The position numbers and the translations under genes were made by a program. Under the pieces are notes generated by a model. It was not told where the DNA came from, searched no databases, and worked only from the letters and a program-made list of their open reading frames with translations. From Methanobacteriota archaeon (GTDB taxonomy: Archaea; Thermoplasmatota; Thermoplasmata; SG8-5; DAIRED01), in contig JAZDNO010000026.1 of the NCBI GenBank assembly GCA_043799545.1, positions 64,001 to 128,000 of the forward strand: 64,000 nt of DNA, written 5' to 3'. Positions 1 to 26,245 of the stretch are shown here, piece by piece. Every line of letters starts with the position of its first letter. Within the stretch, counting starts at the first letter, position 1.

Positions 1-963
1 CGCACGCGTCTTCTCGAGCATCTCGCGCGCCCTATCGAACGTGTCGGGGTTCGACGAATCGACCACGAGTATTATGGCGACTGCCTCGTCGGAAAGGTAT
101 TCGAGCAGCGGGTCGAACATCTCCTGGCCAGGCGTGCCGTAGACCTCTGCGCTGAATCCGCCGTAATCCAGATACCCGTGGTCCATGGCGACAGTCGTGC
201 CCATTCGGTCCACGCTGACCGTCTGGGTGGAAATCGCCCTCGTCATCGTCGATTTTCCGGCCGCATACGGGCCGGTGACCAGTATCTTCGGGACGTAGAC
301 CCTGAGCCCGCCGGGCTTCAGTATCTTGATCGGGACGGAAAGCTGGCGCGCATCCGCCCATCCGACCTTGCGCAGGTGCATCATCTGCTTGAGAATCGTG
401 ATGCTCTCGACTGGCTTGACGCTTATCATGGCGTCGAACTGCCCGATAAGAGCGTTCACGGTCGCTTCATCGTACGACCAGTCGGAGAAGAGCGCTATCG
501 TTCTAACTTCCTTCGGGAGGGCGGACAGGAACTCATTTATGGCTTTCGGGCTCATTCCCAGAACATCCAGCATCGTGCTCACGTTGTCCAGGACGAACGT
601 CGTTTCGCGGCCACCGACGGCGTCGCAGACCTGTTTCATGATGTGCCTGGGGTCGAACGGCTGCTGCACGAACTCGTCGCCCTCGCTGTGGATGCCAATC
701 ATCCCCGAGAACGCGTCCAGCAGGTGCAGGTTGCCCGCCCCGCCGTTGATACTGTCAACGAGGTCGAACTCGCGGCGGATGGCGCTGCCCGGCTTGTTGT
801 TCGTCAAATAAATCGTGTTCCATCCGTCGCGTGCGGATGCCGCAGCGATGCTTACCCCTATTGGCGTGGGGTCTATCCCCGGCGCGACGGAAAGCAAGAT
901 GTTGGCTCCCGCTGGGATATCGCCCATCTCGTCGTCAATCAGCTTGATTCCCAAGCGGGTCAT
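1..963 (-). CDS. Fusion of a degenerate RecA/KaiC-like domain and an MglA/CvnD-type small GTPase (3' end outside window)
   Basis: Not in ORF track because it runs off the left edge. Hand translation from ATG 963 (RBS AAGGAGA): MTRLGIKLIDDEMGDIPAGANILLSVAPGIDPTPIG (Walker A lost)...FVLDNVST...; then KILVTGPYAAGKST (G1), TTVAMDHG (G2), GTPGQ (G3). Open to position 1. Confidence 0.85.
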   Translation of the reverse strand, partial: MTRLGIKLIDDEMGDIPAGANILLSVAPGIDPTPIGVSIAAASARDGWNTIYLTNNKPGSAIRREFDLVDSINGGAGNLHLLDAFSGMIGIHSEGDEFVQQPFDPRHIMKQVCDAVGGRETTFVLDNVSTMLDVLGMSPKAINEFLSALPKEVRTIALFSDWSYDEATVNALIGQFDAMISVKPVESITILKQMMHLRKVGWADARQLSVPIKILKPGGLRVYVPKILVTGPYAAGKSTMTRAISTQTVSVDRMGTTVAMDHGYLDYGGFSAEVYGTPGQEMFDPLLEYLSDEAVAIILVVDSSNPDTFDRAREMLEKTRA

Positions 964-1000
964 TTGCCTGTCTCCTTCTGAGATTGTATCGCCTGCAGGG

Positions 1001-1041
1001 TATTTATCAAGCGGTTTGTCGGTATCACCCGTGGTAACGAC
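1001..1041 (-). promoter_or_regulatory. TATA-like box plus upstream quasi-palindromic motif TATCA-N4-TGGTA-ACGAC
   Basis: Minus-strand GATAAATA at 1001-1008; plus-strand TATCAcccgTGGTAACGAC at 1023-1041; same motif at 4320-4338. Confidence 0.6.
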
Positions 1042-1146
1042 GCCGCCCGGGGGCGAATCCGCCGCTCGAGTACGCATCTATGCCTTGGTTGGTCAACATG
1101 TGTGGTGCCTCTGACGCAAGCGGCGGTTGCGGCGATTGGCGCGGGT

Positions 1147-2688
1147 TTATCCCAGTCTGTATGCGGATCGTTCATATGGCTCCAATATCCTCGTAGTGAA
1201 TTCCAAGGCCGACTTCCCTTTGTGGTCGACGAATTTCGTCTTGAGGCCGACTTGCTGTCCGAACGCAAGAGAGACAATCCCCGCGCAGAACCCGGTACGG
1301 TACGACTCCAGAGGGTTCGTGCCAATTTCTGCGGCCTCGCCATTGGGCGGGACCATCATGAACCTCGCATTCATCTCCTTGACGTCGAAATCCATCACGA
1401 CCACTTTGTCTCCGTCGGCCGGAGCCTGCCTTGCGAGCGCCACCTCGACGAACTTCAGCCTCGATAGCTGGCTGGCCCCGTCCGGCGGCCGCGACCACTT
1501 CATGGCCATCTTCCAACCGGAACCGTAGAGCAGACCGGACGCCCTCTCCGGGCCGATATTTTCCACCATCGCCCTGCATATTTCCTTGGCCTGGCGCGCC
1601 TGGCGCTCCATCTCGTCCTTTGTCGCGCTCAAGGCATTCATTGAGCGATCCAGCTTGTCCAGCATATCGTTGATTGCGCGCGTGAGAGAAGTGATTTCAT
1701 CGTCACCTTCGATGGCCAATCTCTTCGAAGAATTCCCAAGGGGGCCTATTCCGCCCACGTTCATGCTCAGCTTTAACATCCTCGAAATGACGAACCTCTC
1801 AATAGCGAGCGCAGTCACGACGATTATCGTCGCCGCGAGGGTCACCAACGCCGCCATTAGGTACGCGGAACTCGCCTGGCCTTGCTTGAATATTCCACGC
1901 TCCAACAATATCTTGCACAGAAGGGCGGGTTCCCCGTGAACGTCTTCCATCAGGAAATAACCGGCTATGGCGCTTCCGTTCAGTGGTATGATGTGGAACC
2001 CCGATTCAGCTGACAGCGCGCTCCTCGCTTCCAAAAGGTCTCCGTCCAGCGCAGGATCCTCGAATAGGCTGAACGAAACGTCCATCTGCGTGACGTCCGC
2101 GAATTGCGCCACCAGGGATTCGTCTATAAACCGCCCCATGAGCAGCGTCCCCCGGGCGGGCCCCTGCTCAAGGCTGGTGAGAATCGGTTGCGTGGATATC
2201 AAGAGCGCTCCGTCCGGCAGGAGCACGATTCCGCACGCTCCTCCTGTCAGATTGCCAGTTCCGGTGCTGATTTCCCCCGATTCCACCAGCGAGACCAGCC
2301 CATCGGGCAGAGGCGTCCCTTGTGCGCCATCCAGGTCCACGGCTTTGGCAAACACTATATCGTCATGCGTGTCGGCATACACTATCACATTCACGTTTAT
2401 GATTGCGAACGTTTCGTCGGGGAGGTTTGAAGCGAGATATGTGCCGTTCCCATCCTGGATGAAATCGTACGTGTCGTCCCATGAGGCCCAATCCACGCAC
2501 GTGCGATTGATACGTTCCGTCTCTCGCCCGACGGCATTAATTACCCTCTGGGCATTCTCCTCCACATCCAGCCTTTCGAGCTCTGAGAACCCATCGGACA
2601 CTATGGTGTTTGATACGACGACCAGCGCGACGATGAACATCGCCAGTGTGCTTGCCAGTACCAAAGATATCTTCTTGCGGAGCTTCAT
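1147..2688 (-). CDS. Membrane sensor: TM-CHASE4-TM-HAMP-V4R-like domain
   Basis: CHASE4 signature DWASWDDTYDF; HAMP GDDEITSLTRAINDMLDKL; no H-box or HATPase; C-terminal V4R-like fold ending LEPYERSAYRLG. Confidence 0.85.
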   Translation of the reverse strand: MKLRKKISLVLASTLAMFIVALVVVSNTIVSDGFSELERLDVEENAQRVINAVGRETERINRTCVDWASWDDTYDFIQDGNGTYLASNLPDETFAIINVNVIVYADTHDDIVFAKAVDLDGAQGTPLPDGLVSLVESGEISTGTGNLTGGACGIVLLPDGALLISTQPILTSLEQGPARGTLLMGRFIDESLVAQFADVTQMDVSFSLFEDPALDGDLLEARSALSAESGFHIIPLNGSAIAGYFLMEDVHGEPALLCKILLERGIFKQGQASSAYLMAALVTLAATIIVVTALAIERFVISRMLKLSMNVGGIGPLGNSSKRLAIEGDDEITSLTRAINDMLDKLDRSMNALSATKDEMERQARQAKEICRAMVENIGPERASGLLYGSGWKMAMKWSRPPDGASQLSRLKFVEVALARQAPADGDKVVVMDFDVKEMNARFMMVPPNGEAAEIGTNPLESYRTGFCAGIVSLAFGQQVGLKTKFVDHKGKSALEFTTRILEPYERSAYRLG

Positions 2689-2733
2689 GTCACACCCTTG
2701 TCAGATACCAGCGACACCACATCACCCGAACCA

Positions 2734-4275
2734 CTAACCCAGCTTGTAAGCTTTGAATTCATATGGCTCCAGCTCGCGCGTCTCGATTTCGTAGCTGGGG
2801 ACAAGATTGCCCTGGACGGCGCTCACGACCTTCACGCCCACGGGCTTGCCGAAGGCAACGGAGAGGACCGCGGCAACGAAGCCGTGCGCGTACGCCATCT
2901 CGGCGTCGGCGGCGCCGTTCACGTCGAGGATGCGGTCCACCGGAAACATCCCGACTCTGGCGTGATGCCTGGGCCCATAGAATTCCGTGAGCTTCGCCTG
3001 CAATGAAATCATCATTGCATGGCGCTCGAAGAAATCCTCCGCGAAGGACTTCGAGTCTCCCTTCCAGGTCGTGCGCGACGGCCTGGCCTCTTCCAGACCG
3101 ATTCTCCAGCCGCTCTCGTAGATGATGCCCGCCGCCCGCTCGATGCCGATGTCGTTTATCAGCGCTCTGCTGATTTCATTGGACTGGCTCACGCGGGCTT
3201 CGAGACTGGCGTTGGCATGGTAAAGGGCGAGCTCGGCCTTCTTGCGCTCTGTGATGTCCTGATTCGCACCGTGGGTTTTGATGGTCCTGCCGTCTTCGCC
3301 TTTCGTGATTCCTATGCGCACGACGATGTGCCGGACCTCGCCGTCCCTGCGGATTATCCGGTGCTCCAGCTGCGACACATACCCTGGGTCGGTGGTCAGT
3401 ATGGCCTTATGCACTTCATCGGCCACCACGTGGATGTCGTCCGGATGAACGAATCCCTTGGAATACACGTCTGCCGGCATCTGGTAGCCGCCTTCGAGCT
3501 CCGCGGTGGTGCCGTAAAAAGCGTAGAATCGGTCGTTAAAGGTAAAGATGCCGGTAGCGACATCAAATTCCCAGTTGACTATGTGCGCCAGGTCCATCGC
3601 CTGTGTGAGCCGGGCCCGGCTCGTTTTCAGGATTTCCTCCGCAACCTTCCGCTCGGTAAGGTCCACGAAGCTCTCCACGAGATATTCACGGCCGTTCATC
3701 GTCGCCCTGACGACGTTTTTCAGTATGGGAACGCGCTCCCCCTTCTTGTTGATGAGGATTCTTTCAGAATTGTCTATGCTATGTCCTGAGTCCAATACCG
3801 AGCAGCGATTGTCCGCGCCGGAATGGAAAAAATTGTAACAGCGATTGCCGACGATGTCCTTTTTCCCCGAGCCAAGCATTTTCACCGCGACTGGGTTGGC
3901 TTCGACGATCGTGCGCGTCTCCACGTCAACAACGACTACGCCGGTCTGAAGCGCGTTGAATATTGATTTCACCCAGGTCTCGCTCTGCTTCATGGCGTAC
4001 TCGGACGAGCGCGCCTTTGAAATCATTATCTGGTTAATTATGCCCAATCCCATAATCAGTGACACAACGAGAACGCGGAAATATATCTCGAACGGCTCGG
4101 GGCTGAAGAGCTGGGACAGGAACGTCCCCTCCTCGCCGAAGATGTAGATGTCTATGTTGATGTCTATGACCCAGAATACAGCGCTGAGCAGGATTGCCAG
4201 TAAAATAGCGCTGCAACCGGACAATTTCGATGCGCCCTTCCGTCGGCATCCGTGCGTGTTCGTATTCTCGGACAT
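2734..4275 (-). CDS. Membrane sensor: 2TM-PAS-PAS/PAC-V4R-like domain
   Basis: Two N-terminal hydrophobic helices; PAS motifs (IVEANPVAVKMLG; VHPDD...HRIIRRDGEVRH...NQDITERK); V4R-like C-terminus ending LEPYEFKAYKLG. Confidence 0.85.
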   Translation of the reverse strand: MSENTNTHGCRRKGASKLSGCSAILLAILLSAVFWVIDINIDIYIFGEEGTFLSQLFSPEPFEIYFRVLVVSLIMGLGIINQIMISKARSSEYAMKQSETWVKSIFNALQTGVVVVDVETRTIVEANPVAVKMLGSGKKDIVGNRCYNFFHSGADNRCSVLDSGHSIDNSERILINKKGERVPILKNVVRATMNGREYLVESFVDLTERKVAEEILKTSRARLTQAMDLAHIVNWEFDVATGIFTFNDRFYAFYGTTAELEGGYQMPADVYSKGFVHPDDIHVVADEVHKAILTTDPGYVSQLEHRIIRRDGEVRHIVVRIGITKGEDGRTIKTHGANQDITERKKAELALYHANASLEARVSQSNEISRALINDIGIERAAGIIYESGWRIGLEEARPSRTTWKGDSKSFAEDFFERHAMMISLQAKLTEFYGPRHHARVGMFPVDRILDVNGAADAEMAYAHGFVAAVLSVAFGKPVGVKVVSAVQGNLVPSYEIETRELEPYEFKAYKLG

Positions 4276-4298
4276 GAGGCCTAGACCGCCCTGGTGTT

Positions 4299-4338
4299 GT
4301 TAATATCCGCCGTTTTGAGTATCAATTGTGGTAACGAC
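4299..4338 (-). promoter_or_regulatory. Promoter (GTTAATATCCGCCG) plus TATCA-N4-TGGTA-ACGAC motif
   Basis: 14-bp GTTAATATCCGCCG identical at 4299-4312 and 5672-5685; motif at 4320-4338. Confidence 0.6.
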
Positions 4339-4352
4339 TCGCGCTGCATTCG

Positions 4353-5648
4353 TCAGGCCAGCCTGTAAGCTTCGACCTCGTATGGCTCCAGCTTGCGCGT
4401 CTCAATCTCGTAGCACGAGGTGAGATTTCCATGGGTAGCTGCTTCCCCGCCCTTCACGCCCACCGGTTTTCCGAAAGACACGGAGAGCACCGCTGCTATG
4501 AAGCCGTGCGCGTACGCCATTTCCGCGTCGGCTGCAGTCCCCTCGTGTTTCGCATTGTCCATCGGGCACAGCCTGGCCCTCGCGACCGTCGAATTTGCTT
4601 CGAAGTGCAACAAACGCACATGAAATGACATCACGGATGATTGGCGCTCGAAGAAATCCTCCGCGAACGACTTGGAATCCCCTTTCCATGCCTTGCGCGA
4701 CGGCCTGGCCGCTTCCAGACCGATTCTCCAGCCGCTCTCGTAGATGATGCCCGCCGCCCGCTCGATGCCGATGTCGTTTATCAGCGCCTTGCTGATTTCG
4801 TTCGACTGATTAACGCGCGCTTCAAGACTGGCTTGTGTGCTGTAAAGGGTAGCCTCGACCTTCTCTCGGTCCGTTATGTCGCGGAAGAAGGCCACGCCGC
4901 ACATCGTCCCGTCTATAACCACCACAGTACCCTTTATGTCCACATTGAATACATTGCCATCCTTCCTAAGACAAGGGACGTTAAATGCCGAATTCCGTTC
5001 ACCTTTGTAAATCTCCTGAAACATTGATACAATCATAGGCAGCTTGTCGCGAGGGTGTATGTCCGCGACGCTCATGGATTTCATTTCTTCGGATGTGTAG
5101 CCTAGCATCTGGCACATGGCGGAGTTCGCATATCGGAAAGTGCGTGTTTCCAAGGACGCAATTAAGATGCCGTCCGGGCTGCAGTCGAAAAGCGTCCGGT
5201 ACCGCGATTCGGATGCCTGAAGCGAATCCGCGGCTTTTTTTCGCTCGGTTATGTCTCTGCTCGAACCGATGATTTCGACGGGCTTTCCGCTCCCGTCACG
5301 TAAGAGTTTCAACCGAGCCTCAACAAATATAGTCGAGCCATCCTTGCAGAACTCCTCGGCCTCGATGATGCGAGCGTGGTCATGGTCAAAGCCTGAAGAG
5401 CCTTCCCTTTCGAGCAGCGCAGTCATATCTTCCATAACTTGATTTAATGATTCTGCCGTCATCATCTTATCGAGCGGCAATGCCATCGCCTCCTCGGGAG
5501 TATACCCGCGCATCTTTTTTACGGAGGGGCTGAAATACGTGAATCTGCGTGACTTCAAATCCATAATCTAGATAACATCCAGGGAGTTCTCGGCAAGGAG
5601 GCAGTATTTCTTCTCGCTCTCGAGCAGGCCGTTCAATTCTTCCGACAT
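4353..5648 (-). pseudogene. Soluble PAS-PAS-V4R-like sensor with in-frame TAG at 5568-5570
   Basis: ATG 5648 with RBS GGGGTGA reads MSEELNGLLESEKKYCLLAENSLDVI*IMDLKSRRFTYFSPSV; the TAG sits where PAS domains usually have Trp. ORF track starts at 5564. C-terminus LEPYEVEAYRLA. Confidence 0.7.
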
Positions 5649-5671
5649 GTCACCCCGACCGCGCCTTCGCC

Positions 5672-5706
5672 GTTAATATCCGCCGCTGTCGCTATCACGC
5701 TGGATA
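5672..5706 (-). promoter_or_regulatory. Promoter (GTTAATATCCGCCG) plus TATCA-N4-GGATA motif
   Basis: Same 13-nt TATA-to-motif spacing as the 4299-4338 copy. Confidence 0.55.
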
Positions 5707-5903
5707 ATCACGACCCAGTCGCCCAGCTCTGGACGGTATGGCTAGCGCCTGTGGAAAACCGCCTCCCCAGCGGATGAGGGTCTCCGAACCTCCCTCCATT
5801 CCCCCTTGTTTCAAAGACCAGCGAGAACGCGGGAAAGGCCCGGATAATGAGAACTTTTGAGTCGGTTTTAAATACAATGAATCGAACCAACATCACTGGT
5901 CAC

Positions 5904-6728
5904 ATGTCGGCAGTGATATTCGCCCTGAGCAAGAATCCCCGACCAGGCGTCAATCTGGTTGTCGAGGACTACCCCGGGCAGTCGCAGGAAATATTCGGCA
6001 GCTTGGTTTCGATCGGGACCAGGGGGCTCTACATCTCCGAGGAGCGCCAGCCGCAGCACCACATCAAGCCGTCTGACACGCGCGTCAGGTACCTTTGGTT
6101 CTCGAAGATGGGGCTCTCGCCGGGTGACGATGCGGGCGCAATCGTTGCCGAGATCGGAAATAGGATACGGTCGTTCATCGAGGAGTCCGGCTGCAGCGTC
6201 GTGATGGTGGACGCGATACCAAGACTTCTGCGAAGGGGGGGGCTCGCCTCTCTCGGCACCCTGTTCGAGGCCGTTTCCGCATATTCCGAGAAGCGCGGGG
6301 TTCCCATCATCATCCCTGTTGCGATACCGCCGCAGGCTCGCAATCCAGAAGCCCGCGCTGAGATGCCTTCGCATGGCAAGCCTTCGAGGCCTTCGAAAGC
6401 CGTCAAAGATGCCGAGAGGACGGCAGCCCCGGATGGCTCCGAGCGCGCAAGCTGCTTCCGACCCGCCGCGCTTCCGTTCGCGAACTGCGAGCGCTGGGAA
6501 GGGCTAATCGGACTTGAGGCATCAAAATGCCCCAGGGGCGACGAAAAGTCCCTTCATTCCCGGAGGGCGCCAGTCCAGACGCATCGAGAGGCCTCGGCGA
6601 TAATGGCTTCGCTCTCCTGCCACGTGTGCGGCGGCGACATTGGTGGCGACATGAGACGCTGCTCCGTTTGCGGCAGCCGCGCCATCTCGGCCATCGTGAG
6701 AAAAACCAAGAGTCCGTTCTGTAGTTGA
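5904..6728 (+). CDS. DUF835-like (inactive KaiC-fold) protein with C-terminal zinc ribbon
   Basis: GLYISEE..., YLWFSK, FIEESGCSVVMVDAIPRL pattern; low-complexity linker; CHVCG...CSVCG at C-terminus. Start chosen at ATG 5904. Confidence 0.6.
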   Translation: MSAVIFALSKNPRPGVNLVVEDYPGQSQEIFGSLVSIGTRGLYISEERQPQHHIKPSDTRVRYLWFSKMGLSPGDDAGAIVAEIGNRIRSFIEESGCSVVMVDAIPRLLRRGGLASLGTLFEAVSAYSEKRGVPIIIPVAIPPQARNPEARAEMPSHGKPSRPSKAVKDAERTAAPDGSERASCFRPAALPFANCERWEGLIGLEASKCPRGDEKSLHSRRAPVQTHREASAIMASLSCHVCGGDIGGDMRRCSVCGSRAISAIVRKTKSPFCS

Positions 6729-6761: not shown

Positions 6762-7799
6762 CTACCCGTCCACCCTCACGTCTAGCACCACGTGGCTCAC
6801 TCCCGGCGCGTACGACTTCACTTCGCGACAGCGAGCCACCTCTGCCTTCAGGCCCTCGGCTTTTGCAGCGTCCATGACGCGTCCTGTCGGCCTGTCCGGC
6901 AGCAGCGCGTTCGGGCAAGTCTCGTGGTAATGTATGATGCCTGGCCCGCGCAATATCCTCATCGCCTTTCGGAGATACAGGTGCGTCGTCCCGACGTAGC
7001 CCATCAGCACCCTGTCAGCGATGCGCTCCTCCGCCTCCGCGCAGTCCCCGAGCCTCGGTTCGACGTTGTCCAGGCCGTTCAGCGCGACGTTATTGACGAG
7101 GTACGAATGCGATAATGGATTTATCTCGTACGCGACGACGCGCGATGGCTTCGAATATTTGGCCAGCGGCAGAGTGAAGTAGCCGATTCCCGCGAACATG
7201 TCCACGACGACCTCGCCCGGTTTCGAAATGGTGGCCATGCGCAGGCGCTCGTCCATGTTGCCGCTGGAGAACATCAGCTTGGCCGCATCTAGATTGTACT
7301 TGATTCCGTTCTCGACGTGCGTCGTCTCGGTGCCGTCCCCCCACAGCTCCTCAACGCCAGGCTCACGGTACTGGCCCGATATCGGCGCGACCTCTCGCAG
7401 CACGGTCTTCGCACCCAGTTCCTCCGCGTAGGCGGCGGAAATCTGCTCTAGCCAGTCTTCGAGGAACTCGTCAAGTTTCAGCACGAGCACGTCGCCGAGA
7501 AGCTCCCACTTGTCCGGGAGGAGCGCCTTGGCATCCTCTGGAATTTTAAGCGCTCGAAGGATATTCTCGTATGGCGCAGCCCGCACGGTGCGCGGCACGG
7601 CCGCAGCCAGCTCGACGAGCACACCGCCGAGGGAGCGCACGAGCGCGAGCTCGTCATCGCCCAACCCTCGCGAGAGCGGAATCTGGACGAAATCGCCGGA
7701 TTCGTGTATTTTGACTCCGCGCTCGACCGCGCCCGCCCGGTCGAGGGCGATGCGCGCCTCCTCGCCGCTGGATTTCGGGACCTGGACAGCCTGGCTCAC
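6762..7799 (-). CDS. taw2: Trm5/Taw2 (TYW2)-family SAM-dependent tRNA modification enzyme
   Basis: ENGIKYNLDAAKLMFSSGN, VVDMFAGIGYF, IIHYHET; GTGA overlap with hef stop. Confidence 0.8.
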   Translation of the reverse strand: MSQAVQVPKSSGEEARIALDRAGAVERGVKIHESGDFVQIPLSRGLGDDELALVRSLGGVLVELAAAVPRTVRAAPYENILRALKIPEDAKALLPDKWELLGDVLVLKLDEFLEDWLEQISAAYAEELGAKTVLREVAPISGQYREPGVEELWGDGTETTHVENGIKYNLDAAKLMFSSGNMDERLRMATISKPGEVVVDMFAGIGYFTLPLAKYSKPSRVVAYEINPLSHSYLVNNVALNGLDNVEPRLGDCAEAEERIADRVLMGYVGTTHLYLRKAMRILRGPGIIHYHETCPNALLPDRPTGRVMDAAKAEGLKAEVARCREVKSYAPGVSHVVLDVRVDG

Positions 7800-10297
7800 T
7801 CGCCGTCCTCCTTCTCGAGGTAGCGCTCGTCTATAATCTTCCGTATGTGCTCCGCGGTCGCCTGGCCTACTCCCTTGACACGGCAGAGCTCTTCCGCCGA
7901 CGCCGTCATCACGGCGCGCGCGGAACCGAAGTGCGCGAGCAGCCGCTGAGCCAGCGTCGCCGAGATGCCGGGCAGCCCCTCGACGAGGAACTGCTGCCGC
8001 TCGTGCAGGAGCATCCCGCCCTTGCCGGAGCGCATCGGAGGCGGACCGCCCCCCGTGGCAATCTCGCGCTTCACGAAGGCGTGTATCATCCGCGCAGTCT
8101 CGAGGGGGTCCTTGGAGAACAGAACAGGAACGCCGAAGTCGCCGGCGATTGACGCCAGCGCTCCGTAAATCGCTGAGTCGGATACCTGGCGCACTCCGAA
8201 CAGCGTCTCGCCCTCGATTATCATCACCGGCCGCTGGTACGCCCGCTTCAGCTCCTTCGCCTGCTGGAACAAGCGGCCGTCGAGCATCGACGCCAGGAAG
8301 TCGGCGACCTCCTTCCTTTCGACCGCGACGCGCTCCGAGACCACGTAATCCCCGGTCGGAAGCTGCGCGGTCCGAACCGCGAGGCCCATCCTGGCCAGCT
8401 CGCGGACGACCGAGGAATTTAACTCCCTGCTGTCGACGACGACCTCGGCTGTTTTGGGCGGGGGTTCGGATGCCGATTGCCGCCCGCCCGCGGCAACGAC
8501 AATCGCAGGCTCGACTTTCTGCGCTTTGAAATCCGCGAGCCTGGCCTGCCCCTTCCTCGCCAGCTCTGGATGGTCTGGCGCGTCCGACGGCGCGTCGTGT
8601 ACCGTTTCATCGGGTGCTGCAACCGCAGGCGGTTCTCCGGTTCCGGGCGGCGGCGGGACGTCCGTCAGCTCGTCCAGCTTCGCGACCGACGGGTCTGGGA
8701 CCTTCCGTCTCGCCACCTTTCCCTGCGGGGCGCTGGCCATCGCCTCGAAGGCGCTCTTGAACGCCGTCTCCGCGGGCTCACCGACGGCGATGCGCTTCTT
8801 CAGTTCGGCCCGCAGGCGCTCCATGTCGTCGTTCATCTTCCCTTCCTTGCGCCTGCTGACCCAGTACGCGCCCTCGTCGCGGGTGTTCTTCGTGATGAGA
8901 TAGACTACCTTGCCGGCGCGGCTGCGGCCGGTGCGACCGCGGCGCTGGATTGTGCGAATCTCGCTCGGCACTGGCTCGTAGAAAATCACCAGGTCGGTCG
9001 CCGGTATGTCAAGACCCTCCTCCGCCACGCTCGTTGCGACGAGGACGTTGAACTCCCCGTCTCGGAACTTCTGGAGCCTCTCGACCTGGTCCTTCTGCTT
9101 CATCCCCTTGTCCTTTCCCTTGGTCGCCTGGCCGACGAAACGCAGGGCGCGGACGTGCCTCACCTTCTGAAGCTCGGCGGTGACCATCTCCGAGATTTCG
9201 CGGTAGTGGGTGAAGACGATTATCTTGGCCTTGGGGTTCGACTGCAGCTCGTCCTCGACGACCGCAACCACCCGGGAAACCTTCGGATGCTCGAAATCGA
9301 GCTTCGAGGCGATTCTGCGGACCTCGCCAATCCGCGGGTCCACCAGCAGACGGCGACCGGACTTGGTGCTGTCGTCCTCCAAGCGCTCTAAGTACGCAAG
9401 TAGAGCGCCGACGCCCTGCGTCTCCGCCATCGTGAGCGCATGATTCGCTTTCATCGCCATCGCCACCGTCGCCTGCGCATGGAAGAGGCGGGGGTCCTTC
9501 TGCGCCTGCGAGTGCAGCTTCGCCTGGATGAGCTGCTGCGCCTCGAGGATGCTCCGGACGGACGCTGGCTTTCCCCTGGGAAGGACTCCGTAGTTCCGGA
9601 GCGCGTTCACAGCGTCGTTGAGAATTGCGCGGAGCAATTCAGCGAGCTTCTTGACCTCGGGCGGCACGTCCACGCGCAGCCAGCGCTCGTCGATGTCGTG
9701 CAGGTACGGAGCGACATCGGGGTCGTCCTCGCTGCGGATTTCGACGGCCTGGATGCCCAGGTTGGCGCAGACCTCCATGACCTTCTGCGGGTCGCTGCCC
9801 GGCGAGGCGGTCATGCCCATAACGAGGCCCTTGTTCGCGAACTTCTCCCCTATGAAAACGTAGGCGTAGTCGCCGACCGCGCGGTGCGCCTCGTCGAAGA
9901 CCAGAAGGCTGACATCGTCGAGGTTCATCTCTCCCGAAATCAGGTCGTTGACAATCACCTGCGGCGTGCTCACGATGATGCTGTAGCGGGACCATGACTC
10001 GCGGCGCTCGTGCGGGGCCATCTCCCCCGTGAAGACTGCGGGCTCCTCGACCAAAAGCACATCCCTAAGCGTCTGGGCGTGCTGCTCGACAAGCGGCTTT
10101 GTCGGGGCGAGGAACAGAACTTTGCCCTTCTGCCGCTTGAGTATATCGGCCATCGCCAGCACGGCTATCATGGTCTTGCCTATGCCGGTCGGCAGGACGA
10201 CGAGCGTGGGGCGCTGGACGCACGAACGGGCTATAGCGATTTGGTAGGCTCGCTCCTCCACTGTCTCGGGCTTTATCAGCGAATGCGAGACGAACAC
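7796..10297 (-). CDS. hef: Hef (FANCM/XPF-like) SF2 helicase-ERCC4 nuclease
   Basis: LPTGIGKT, DEAH, QRRGRTGR, ERK nuclease motif (VAVERKEVADF), C-terminal HhH. Confidence 0.95.
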   Translation of the reverse strand: MFVSHSLIKPETVEERAYQIAIARSCVQRPTLVVLPTGIGKTMIAVLAMADILKRQKGKVLFLAPTKPLVEQHAQTLRDVLLVEEPAVFTGEMAPHERRESWSRYSIIVSTPQVIVNDLISGEMNLDDVSLLVFDEAHRAVGDYAYVFIGEKFANKGLVMGMTASPGSDPQKVMEVCANLGIQAVEIRSEDDPDVAPYLHDIDERWLRVDVPPEVKKLAELLRAILNDAVNALRNYGVLPRGKPASVRSILEAQQLIQAKLHSQAQKDPRLFHAQATVAMAMKANHALTMAETQGVGALLAYLERLEDDSTKSGRRLLVDPRIGEVRRIASKLDFEHPKVSRVVAVVEDELQSNPKAKIIVFTHYREISEMVTAELQKVRHVRALRFVGQATKGKDKGMKQKDQVERLQKFRDGEFNVLVATSVAEEGLDIPATDLVIFYEPVPSEIRTIQRRGRTGRSRAGKVVYLITKNTRDEGAYWVSRRKEGKMNDDMERLRAELKKRIAVGEPAETAFKSAFEAMASAPQGKVARRKVPDPSVAKLDELTDVPPPPGTGEPPAVAAPDETVHDAPSDAPDHPELARKGQARLADFKAQKVEPAIVVAAGGRQSASEPPPKTAEVVVDSRELNSSVVRELARMGLAVRTAQLPTGDYVVSERVAVERKEVADFLASMLDGRLFQQAKELKRAYQRPVMIIEGETLFGVRQVSDSAIYGALASIAGDFGVPVLFSKDPLETARMIHAFVKREIATGGGPPPMRSGKGGMLLHERQQFLVEGLPGISATLAQRLLAHFGSARAVMTASAEELCRVKGVGQATAEHIRKIIDERYLEKEDGE

Positions 10298-25105: not shown

Positions 25106-26245
25106 TTATCCATCCGCATTGACTTTCTTCATCGTTTTCAGGAGACTCCTGACCTTGCGGGCTTCCGCCTCGATTCGTCCCCTGCCGGCCTTGACGTCTA
25201 TCTTCGCGTACATCGATTTCAAGTAATGGATGTCCTCCTCGGTCAGGTATTTGCAGCTGAACGGGAAGAACGTTTCCTCCTCCAGCTTGAAATGGGGCCC
25301 GATTATCTCGATGTATCTGGAGATGGTCTTCTTCAACGGAGCTGTCAGCCTCTTGCGCTCCGCGTAATAATTGCCCAAATCCCTGTAGATGTCAGCGAGG
25401 CATTTCTCCATCTCGTCGTCCCTGTCGCCAATCTGCAGGCCGATGTCGTAGGCCTGAACGGACTGTGTGACTGGCTCCAGCAATTTCATCTTGTCTTCCA
25501 GATATTTTTCCAGGTCATTTTTCATGTCCTTGAAGATGGCCTCAAGCTCGTCGTGCTGCTCCTGCAGTATTGCGAACGAAGTCTTGGACATCTCGGCGAA
25601 CCAGTCGGGATGCTCCGTCACGACTCGTTCTATGAACTTGTCGGTATATATTCGTTCCTTGGCGACGTGTACCTCGTAGTCCGCCATGAACACGACCGAT
25701 ACGCACCACGAGAGCACGTCCTTGGGAATGCCCCTGTCCAGGTTTTCGTTGACCAGGGTCATCAAATCCCTGATGTCGCGCAGCAACGGATGCTCGGCTA
25801 CGAGCATATCCGTTATCTCGTTCGCGTGCTTCAGATGTTCGCCCTTCTCCAGCCCATCCAGCAGCCCCAAGCCGACCTGTACCCTCGCCACAAGAGTGGA
25901 AGGCGTGAACGGAATGGCCAGGAAATCATCCACACCCGCCTTTAGAGCGGTGATGAGCCCCGATGCGTTTTTTCTGGCATCCGTCAAAAGGATGATGTAG
26001 CACAGCCGTCCCGCCTCCTTCGACACCTCTCGGATGTCGTGGCCCAATGTGGGAATGCTGACGCCCTTAATCCGTTCGTCCAGTATGGCGACTTGGAGCT
26101 CGTTGTCCGATTCGAATGCCCTGATGACCTCGGTCCCGTTCGAAACGCCCGAAACCCTGAAGCCTTCGCTCTCCAATGCCTTGGTAATTTGGGAATTGGA
26201 TTCCTGATGAGCGGTCGCCAGAAGGATTCTGTTGGCCCGGGTCAT
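25106..26245 (-). CDS. Atypical receiver (REC) domain fused to a hemerythrin-like (HHE) domain
   Basis: REC pattern ILDER...ILLT...GVDDFLAIPF (Lys replaced by Ile); HHE ligands EH, HVAKE, QH, HFKLEE. Confidence 0.75.
   Translation of the reverse strand: MTRANRILLATAHQESNSQITKALESEGFRVSGVSNGTEVIRAFESDNELQVAILDERIKGVSIPTLGHDIREVSKEAGRLCYIILLTDARKNASGLITALKAGVDDFLAIPFTPSTLVARVQVGLGLLDGLEKGEHLKHANEITDMLVAEHPLLRDIRDLMTLVNENLDRGIPKDVLSWCVSVVFMADYEVHVAKERIYTDKFIERVVTEHPDWFAEMSKTSFAILQEQHDELEAIFKDMKNDLEKYLEDKMKLLEPVTQSVQAYDIGLQIGDRDDEMEKCLADIYRDLGNYYAERKRLTAPLKKTISRYIEIIGPHFKLEEETFFPFSCKYLTEEDIHYLKSMYAKIDVKAGRGRIEAEARKVRSLLKTMKKVNADG

Follow-up and report, generated by a model that had tools for sequence, protein, structure and literature searches.

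How can a family of sensor proteins pass on a signal when it has no kinase domain? This question is raised by a locus at the low end of a 64,000-nucleotide stretch of DNA from an uncultured Thermoplasmatota archaeon (bases 64001-128000 of contig JAZDNO010000026.1; assembly of 2.06 Mb, 94% complete), which we call the window. It contains three sensor genes, each ending in the same kind of C-terminal domain, and a gene in which a degenerate KaiC-like domain is fused to a small GTPase. An earlier note, made from the sequence alone, had proposed that this C-terminal domain is a V4R-like transmitter that relays cues to the GTPase by direct contact. Our analysis suggests that the locus is probably a receptor-to-G-protein pathway. 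With a confidence slightly above even, we consider the sensors to be receptors of a histidine-kinase-free pathway, in which the transmitter acts on a GTPase/Roadblock/KaiC module by protein contact.

All genes of the system in the window lie on the minus strand and are transcribed in the order sensor 3, sensor 2, sensor 1, fusion. Sensor 1 (1147-2688, 513 amino acids) consists of a transmembrane segment, CHASE4, a second transmembrane segment, HAMP, a linker helix and the V4R-like C-terminal domain, which is encoded at 1150-1590. Its CHASE4 and HAMP domains were matched by Pfam (E value 7e-38 and 25 bits, respectively), its C-terminal domain matched the family profile with an E value of 9e-59, and an orthologue of 53% identity is present at the equivalent position in the sister genome. 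Sensor 2 (2734-4275, 513 amino acids, C-terminal domain encoded at 2737-3180) has two transmembrane (hydrophobic) segments followed by two PAS domains (PAS_9 and PAS_3 in Pfam), a linker helix and the V4R-like domain. Sensor 3 (4353-5564, 403 amino acids, C-terminal domain encoded at 4356-4802) is a cytoplasmic protein with two PAS domains, a linker helix and the V4R-like domain, and its output half is a recent copy of that of sensor 2. The first PAS domain of sensor 3 starts at the very N-terminus and is cut short there; the open frame of 404 codons is not extendable. Compared with P0017, a relative of 552 amino acids, the first PAS strands of sensor 3 are apparently missing, therefore this PAS domain may be degenerate.

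The genome holds five copies of the C-terminal domain: the three in the window, one in a CHASE4-HAMP protein and one in a dCache-HAMP protein elsewhere. Neither HisKA nor HATPase_c was matched in any of these five paralogues with Pfam and NCBIfam, which bears out the earlier observation that the three sensors (CHASE4-HAMP, 2TM-PAS-PAS and PAS-PAS) have no H-box or HATPase domain. Across the whole assembly we obtained no HisKA match either, and the three HATPase_c matches were GyrB, MutL and Top6B. A Roadblock gene beside a HATPase_c gene on contig 29 was considered as a conservon and rejected, since that HATPase_c gene is GyrB. One REC domain was found in the genome, at residues 7-123 of a protein of 379 amino acids (window 25106-26245, minus strand); the remaining approximately 250 residues of this protein have no Pfam family. 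Two kinds of domain terminate the PAS, HAMP, CHASE4 and Cache sensors of the genome: the new domain in five of them and MetOD1 in two. The organism appears to have no histidine kinases altogether.

The shared C-terminal domain is approximately 148 amino acids long. Pairwise identity of the three window copies is 68% (sensors 2 and 3) and 33-34%, with E values of 3e-65 and 9e-19, so the C-termini are true paralogues, as had been claimed. They share the tail LEPYExxAY(R/K)L, and the window sensors end directly after it. Among the five copies of the genome 24 columns are invariant, including IGxERxxGxxYxSGW and TRxLExYExxY. The domain is always placed at the extreme C-terminus, while the inputs in front of it vary (CHASE4-HAMP, dCache-HAMP, 2TM-PAS, PAS and GAF-like); it is a constant module behind variable sensory inputs, as the earlier note had described it.

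No Pfam or NCBIfam model reached its cut-off on the C-terminal domain, and V4R (PF02830) was absent even at E <= 10 when isolated domains were searched. XylR_N matched only the first helices, with 21 bits against a cut-off of 23, there was no match to MetOD1 (PF18546), and a sequence profile search of the PDB gave DmpR and PoxR at E values of 0.5-1.6 only. Direct profile comparisons with hhalign gave a probability of 5% for the MetOD1 region, with only the last 39 columns aligned, and of 0.2% for an Archaeoglobi V4R protein, with a weak partial alignment. Both alignments are weak and partial; the case for homology of the domain to the V4R superfamily is made by its predicted fold. We also considered that the domain might be catalytic or bind DNA and rejected this, as no such family surfaced in the Pfam, NCBIfam or PDB searches.

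We modelled residues 366-513 of sensor 2 with AlphaFold2 (mean predicted local distance difference test score 80, predicted template modelling score 0.79). Read from the N-terminus, the model has three helices and a hairpin, then a long helix, another hairpin and a short helix at the end. It has the two-layer alpha/beta arrangement of the V4R type, with an N-terminal helical pair, a four-stranded sheet and a long central helix (Foldseek probability 1.00). The closest matches were the phenol-sensor domains of PoxR, DmpR and MopR, with Foldseek E values of 3e-6 to 1e-4 (DmpR 3e-6) and template modelling scores of 0.63-0.70; in VIA-align 2, PoxR reached a Z score of 13.2 (135 of 148 residues, 3.1 Å) and DmpR 12.2. 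Further matches were BcsD (E 9e-4 to 2e-3, Z 10.4), Bet3/TRAPPC3 (E 4e-5 to 8e-4; Bet3-TPC6B, Z 9.4) and H-NOX (E about 3e-4 to 2e-3, Z 6.7). The V4R protein MJ1460 and the thorarchaeal TRAPPC3 were not among the Foldseek matches listed; VIA-align 2 gave them Z scores of 8.8 and 7.8, respectively. The model therefore indicates a V4R/Bet3/H-NOX fold, and the sequence family is new. The V4R assignment, made by eye in the earlier note, stands at the level of the fold superfamily (PoxR and Bet3 as above) and fails at the level of sequence, where no V4R Pfam match was obtained.

The same note had remarked that the usual Cys cluster of V4R domains is absent. We confirmed this in an alignment of 13 domain sequences, which has no invariant Cys or His and no Cys/Zn cluster. 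Eight of the 13 sequences retain one Cys that precedes the last strand; of the window copies, only sensor 3 has it. The terminal helix LEPYExxAYRL is an addition beyond the V4R core, as canonical V4R proteins stop at the preceding strand.

The domain is very rare. When 1.84 billion representative proteins were searched exhaustively with HMMER, 12 matched at E <= 1e-30; at E <= 1e-10 the number rose to 14, five of them from the genome studied here, and one further truncated copy was detected at 1.5e-9. In genome searches the domain was present in 4 of the 22 species genomes of the order, across two families. A sample of 401 genomes of the class likewise contained it in 4.

The fusion gene occupies positions 1-963 of the window on the minus strand, which cover the N-terminal 321 of its 382 codons; the full gene (L007:11815-12960, minus strand) crosses the window edge. 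The open reading frame could alternatively begin at window position 1077. Since the homologues begin at MTRLGIKL, we take 963 as the true start, giving a protein of 382 amino acids. Its N-terminal half belongs to the KaiC family (PF06745, 28.0-28.7 bits against a cut-off of 26.6), and the same assignment is precomputed for most of the homologues. Pfam matches Arf, Ras and MMR_HSR1 in the other half. In this protein VAPGIDPTP stands at the Walker A site, G1 is GPYAAGKST, G3 is GTPGQ and G4 is NHSD. We aligned 28 fusion homologues. In most of the family (A/S)PGIDPxP replaces the Walker A motif GxxxxGK[ST], and it diverges in a minority of homologues; the KaiC domain of the fusion is thus inactive as an ATPase. 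G1 (GPxxxGK[ST]) is invariant among the 28 and switch I (SVDRMGTT) nearly so, while G3 is GTPGQ in all but three, which have GT(I/V)GQ. With this G1, a G3 that carries Thr (TxxGQ) and an adjoining Roadblock/MglB gene, the C-terminal half is of the MglA type. The description of a degenerate KaiC-like::MglA-type GTPase lying directly downstream on the strand of the sensors was therefore correct.

Two further observations concern the GTPase. In several Thermoplasmatota subclades, including the present one, the G4 motif NKxD reads NHSD, NHxD or NF(T/S)D; it reads NKQD in Asgard archaea and Archaeoglobi. Judged by this motif, nucleotide preference of the non-NKxD subclades may differ. In another Thermoplasmatota family an open frame of 803 amino acids (L087, G458:C69, about 7433-7945) was matched by the fusion profile in its GTPase half only (positions 212-382); this frame may represent a larger GTPase fusion of a different kind.

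Beyond the window edge the operon continues with a Roadblock/LC7 gene, two genes for small multi-pass membrane proteins, a dead KaiC, a DUF835 gene and an active KaiC. The Roadblock/LC7 gene (Pfam, 55 bits) lies just beyond the window edge, its start overlapping the stop of the fusion. Here and in 17 of 28 other contexts, among them all four complete contexts from the domain-bearing lineage, the fusion is overlapped or directly adjoined by a Roadblock gene. By its sequence, the GTPase is provided with a canonical MglB-type partner. The dead KaiC (P0010) has no P-loop and also matches DUF7504 and DUF835. The last gene of the operon (P0012) encodes a KaiC-like ATPase with an intact P-loop, GPPGTGKT (121 bits), and the KaiC family is known for autophosphorylation (Makarova 2016, PMC4858521). 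Since this ATPase belongs to the operon, the system is not free of potential kinases. The term kinase-free, used in the earlier proposal, holds for histidine kinases, as no HisKA was found in the 94% complete assembly, and does not hold for the operon as a whole.

The small membrane proteins of 111 and 119 amino acids (L007:11099-11434 and L007:10739-11098, both on the minus strand) lie between the Roadblock and the dead KaiC genes and belong to no family. Their weak homologues hold the same position in domain-bearing relatives (L020, L021, L023 and L029); none was seen in the wider fusion family.

We observed that 9 of the 13 domain copies with readable context sit no more than 5 kb from the fusion. 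The linked copies are three of five in this genome, two of two in a sister species, one of two and one of one in two genomes of a second family, and those on two metagenome contigs. The sister species carries a CHASE4-HAMP sensor, a PAS sensor, the fusion and Roadblock, in the order of the present genome. In the second family gene order and orientation differ from those of the present genome: in one of its genomes a CHASE4-HAMP sensor is convergent and located about 4 kb from the fusion, beside an active KaiC, and in the other a sensor, a dead KaiC and the fusion lie inside 2.5 kb. A metagenome contig of 220 kb carries a PAS sensor, the fusion, Roadblock, two small proteins, a dead KaiC, DUF835 and two KaiC genes, and a short groundwater contig carries a 2TM-PAS sensor followed by the first 39 codons of the fusion. 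The linkage thus withstood inversion and reshuffling between the two families. Further, within the order the fusion (E <= 1e-10) was found in exactly the 4 of 22 genomes that bear the domain. These two observations, linkage and co-occurrence, agree with what the earlier proposal had led us to expect, and functional coupling of the domain and the fusion module is well supported.

The fusion itself is distributed much more widely than the domain. The family comprises more than 200 clusters at 90% identity, from sources that include Thermoplasmatota, Lokiarchaeia, Jordarchaeia, Freyarchaeum and Archaeoglobaceae, and a sample of 401 genomes of the phylum contained it in 71 genomes, belonging to 42 of 162 genera. 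We read 23 contexts from other lineages. The core that recurs in them consists of the fusion, a Roadblock gene that precedes or follows it, a dead KaiC and, optionally, a KaiC. As judged from these sequences, the core module of fusion, Roadblock and dead KaiC is old and widespread. Archaeal type IV pilus genes are found among its neighbours (T2SSF in 5 of the 23 contexts, T2SSE in 4, PilB3_C in 3 and Pilin_N in 2), REC proteins are also frequent beside it, and other lineages attach other kinase-less sensors to it, for example a dCache-HAMP-TPR protein. KaiC ATPases, MoxR/vWA and Roadblock proteins have been listed in archaeal type IV pilus loci (Makarova 2016, PMC4858521), which agrees with the contexts described here. 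A MoxR-vWA pair follows the module in the Freyarchaeum (L035) and Lokiarchaeia (L033) contexts. In the Freyarchaeum and Jordarchaeales contexts a KaiB-like or thioredoxin-like gene of 95 amino acids and a KaiC gene precede the fusion (L035:5875-6986 and L036:5848-6919).

In 3 of the 23 contexts a stand-alone V4R gene is found inside the module. In another Thermoplasmatota family four genes abut one another: Roadblock, V4R (PF02830; 39.4 bits, cut-off 31), fusion and dead KaiC. Two contigs of the Archaeoglobi type have a dead KaiC, the fusion, Roadblock and V4R, with V4R proteins 56% identical to each other. The present genome holds two more arrangements that involve V4R. Two tandem Ras/Rab-like GTPase genes (273 and 180 amino acids) are directly followed by a V4R::DUF835 fusion of 318 amino acids (L092:1633-3981; contig 2, 114632-116980), in which V4R scores 39 bits and DUF835 114 bits, and a V4R protein of 294 amino acids is encoded directly before a KaiC gene (L093; PF06745, E value 1e-49). 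V4R, dead-KaiC/DUF835 and small GTPases therefore co-occur in at least four fusion or operon arrangements. Because V4R and DUF835 are fused in one protein, 'Rosetta stone' logic suggests that V4R works with the KaiC-like fold, which in turn is fused to the GTPase.

These data are consistent with the following mechanism. Periplasmic (CHASE4), membrane-proximal and cytoplasmic (PAS) inputs would be passed through HAMP or a linker helix to a dimeric transmitter of the V4R/Bet3 fold. Rather than phosphorylating any target, the transmitter would shift its contact with the module encoded in the same operon. It would most likely dock on a dead-KaiC/DUF835-type domain, an adaptor that brings the GTPase to the receptor; this docking site is favoured because of the V4R::DUF835 fusion. 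Docking would then bias the GTP/GDP state that is otherwise under control of Roadblock, and the state of the GTPase would be the read-out. The tail LEPYExxAY(R/K)L, as an extension past the V4R core, may be the likeliest contact element. We infer the physical contact and its partner, as well as which way the GTPase is affected and what the cell does in response. There is a precedent for such contact: regulators of the XylR/DmpR type use a domain of this kind to control a P-loop ATPase domain directly. A complex prediction for the fusion, Roadblock and the C-terminal domain gave a score of 0.00, below the mark, and its controls were not run; a look-up of RNA runs for window positions 1-6000 listed none. 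Neither result counts for or against this mechanism.

Several observations weigh against this mechanism. The AlphaFold2 model was built from a shallow alignment of 5 paralogous sequences. Twenty of the 23 contexts from other lineages have no V4R gene in the module, and 4 of the 13 domain copies are orphans amid housekeeping genes. All carriers of the domain are kin, from two related families, hence linkage and co-occurrence represent few independent events. Finally, the nearest structural matches bind small molecules, therefore a ligand-binding role is possible for the C-terminal domain as well. Phenol-binding V4R domains, palmitate-binding Bet3 and haem-binding H-NOX are all ligand-binding relatives by fold. 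The domain could then be a further ligand- or cofactor-binding domain of a sensory or sequestering kind. The proteins would integrate signals and work by oligomerisation or membrane effects, and gene adjacency would reflect co-regulation instead of contact. The orphan copies fit this explanation, and for Asgard TRAPPC3/V4R proteins Tran et al. 2024 (PMC10933270) concluded that ligand binding is probable. However, a domain that stands behind HAMP and a linker helix and receives interchangeable inputs occupies the place of a transmitter, and most copies lack the Cys/Zn cluster by which the cavity is shaped in V4R, PoxR and Thor-TRAPPC3. A ligand-binding role would also leave the sensors without an output, and it would explain neither the conserved terminal tail nor the V4R genes that recur inside the module. 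We consider it unlikely.

The match to Bet3 raises a different possibility, namely that the domain acts on the GTPase itself. In the structure of TRAPP with Ypt1 the C-terminus of Bet3 acts in the nucleotide pocket of Ypt1, and the tail of the present domain can be likened to it. The domain and Roadblock, the latter being longin-like, would together form a TRAPP-like, receptor-controlled nucleotide exchange factor for the fused MglA/Arf-like GTPase, acting directly on its GTPase domain. The dead KaiC would serve as docking adaptor, and the whole would be a minimal prokaryotic counterpart of the Bet3-plus-longin TRAPP core, connected without intermediates to sensors of the environment. The match to the Bet3/TPC6 fold extends over nearly the whole domain (Z 8-9.4, Foldseek E 4e-5), three other lineages have the genes for V4R, Roadblock and the GTPase side by side, and the tail beyond the V4R core is acidic, aromatic and conserved. 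Against this stand the lack of sequence similarity to Bet3, the absence of a V4R gene from most fusion modules and the V4R::DUF835 fusions, which point to the KaiC-like fold as the neighbour and not to the G domain. Direct exchange activity is in our view quite improbable, and we hold the picture of a TRAPP core counterpart to be just as doubtful. The linkage could also be historical: lineage-specific sensors would have been duplicated in tandem beside an unrelated GTPase/KaiC operon and would target, for example, the REC protein, CheB-CheR or the membrane. The narrow taxonomic range, the recent duplication that gave sensors 2 and 3 (68% identity), the orphan copies and a CheB-CheR-PAS fusion and PAS-MetOD1 gene just past the operon speak for it. 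Nevertheless, linkage was kept through inversion and reshuffling between families, presence and absence of domain and fusion are identical within the order, and distantly related archaea have V4R genes inside this module too. A purely historical linkage is therefore very unlikely, and we prefer the contact-based receptor pathway.

The neighbourhood of the system contains several other genes. Past the far end of the operon, and converging on it, lies the CheB-CheR-PAS fusion gene (999 amino acids, L007:2008-5007, plus strand). It is followed after 5 nucleotides by the gene for P0150 (L007:5013-7526, plus strand), a protein with four PAS domains that ends in MetOD1 (PF18546, 56.6 bits). The two genes lie 4.5-10 kb beyond the low window edge, the PAS-MetOD1 gene about 5 kb past the operon end. 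No histidine kinase, and hence none of the CheA type, was found in the assembly. On the other side of the sensors a divergent open reading frame (5847-6728, plus strand, 293 amino acids) had been described as DUF835-like and placed in the system. It is a doubtful frame and not a conserved member of the system. We obtained no Pfam or NCBIfam match for it, its colinear BLASTP match to P0011, the DUF835 protein of the cluster, is weak (pairwise E value 0.004), and it has no homologue in 11 related loci; therefore we rejected it as a component.

Parts of the system are of known kinds, namely MglA/MglB and conservon modules, KaiC hubs and output domains of the V4R superfamily such as MetOD1. In MglA/MglB and conservon modules a membrane sensor is encoded with Roadblock/LC7 and an MglA-type GTPase, and the role of a receptor-to-G-protein switch in prokaryotes has been suggested for them (Wuichet and Sogaard-Andersen 2014, PMC4316618). 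Like the actinobacterial conservon (CvnA-D) and MglA-MglB, the present locus combines sensors with Roadblock/LC7 and an MglA-type GTPase that has Thr replacing Asp in G3. Unlike in the conservon, the sensors have an output of the V4R fold in place of HATPase_c, the GTPase is fused to a dead KaiC, the operon adds a dead KaiC, DUF835 and an active KaiC, and the host is an archaeon. No DUF742 (CvnC) was present among the operon proteins, and no HATPase_c of the CvnA type in the sensors. With the KaiC-centred archaeal signalling hubs (Makarova, Galperin and Koonin 2017, as cited in PMC5847659) the locus shares active and inactivated KaiC-like proteins and DUF835 tied to sensor domains, and a core module that is often located by T2SSE, T2SSF and pilin genes. 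It differs from them in that the output domain of the sensor family has no family model and is confined to few genomes.

MetOD1 has been described as an output domain at the C-terminus of signalling proteins in archaea (Galperin 2018, PMC5847659), and the present domain shares with it both this position and the fold superfamily. However, unlike MetOD1 (PF18546) and V4R (PF02830), it has no Pfam match and no three-Cys/Zn cluster, and it carries the extra C-terminal helix LEPYExxAY(R/K)L. In DmpR, PoxR and MopR (XylR_N+V4R) the domain is an N-terminal ligand sensor, whereas here it stands in the C-terminal position of a transmitter. Bet3/TRAPPC3 of TRAPP and the Asgard TRAPPC3 resemble the present case in that a Bet3-type fold occurs beside a small GTPase and Roadblock, a longin-like platform. 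The present domain, in contrast to the TRAPP core, has no sequence relationship to Bet3, Roadblock takes the place of the longin subunits, and its exchange activity is putative. In the cultured lokiarchaeon MK-D1 small GTPase genes are generally not in operons with Roadblock, longin and TRAPPC3 genes (Tran et al. 2024, PMC10933270), whereas in the present locus genes for the V4R-fold sensors, the GTPase and Roadblock are contiguous. An operon association of V4R, GTPase and Roadblock was not found in the literature searched, which excludes Makarova et al. 2017, and Podar 2008 (PMC2253512) does not mention GTPase, Roadblock, KaiC or RecA. What is new is an undescribed transmitter family, associated exclusively with one subclade of the module, and its convergence with stand-alone V4R genes in the module elsewhere. 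The apparent lack of histidine kinases in the genome is new as well.

In summary, archaeal signal transduction outside two-component systems is, to our knowledge, largely uncharted, and we know of no archaeal small GTPase with a demonstrated upstream receptor. The locus described here presents a compact chain of sensors, a new transmitter domain, a GTPase with its Roadblock partner and KaiC-type proteins. The significance of the finding is limited by the tiny taxonomic range of the output domain and by a host that offers no experimental handle. The locus also bears on the origin of the eukaryotic Bet3/longin/Rab machinery. If the exchange-factor explanation were true, the locus would provide an archaeal, operon-defined pairing of a GTPase with its regulator and would show a role of V4R before its recruitment in eukaryotes. 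The recurrence of combinations of V4R, dead-KaiC/DUF835 and small GTPases suggests a general logic of archaeal signalling.

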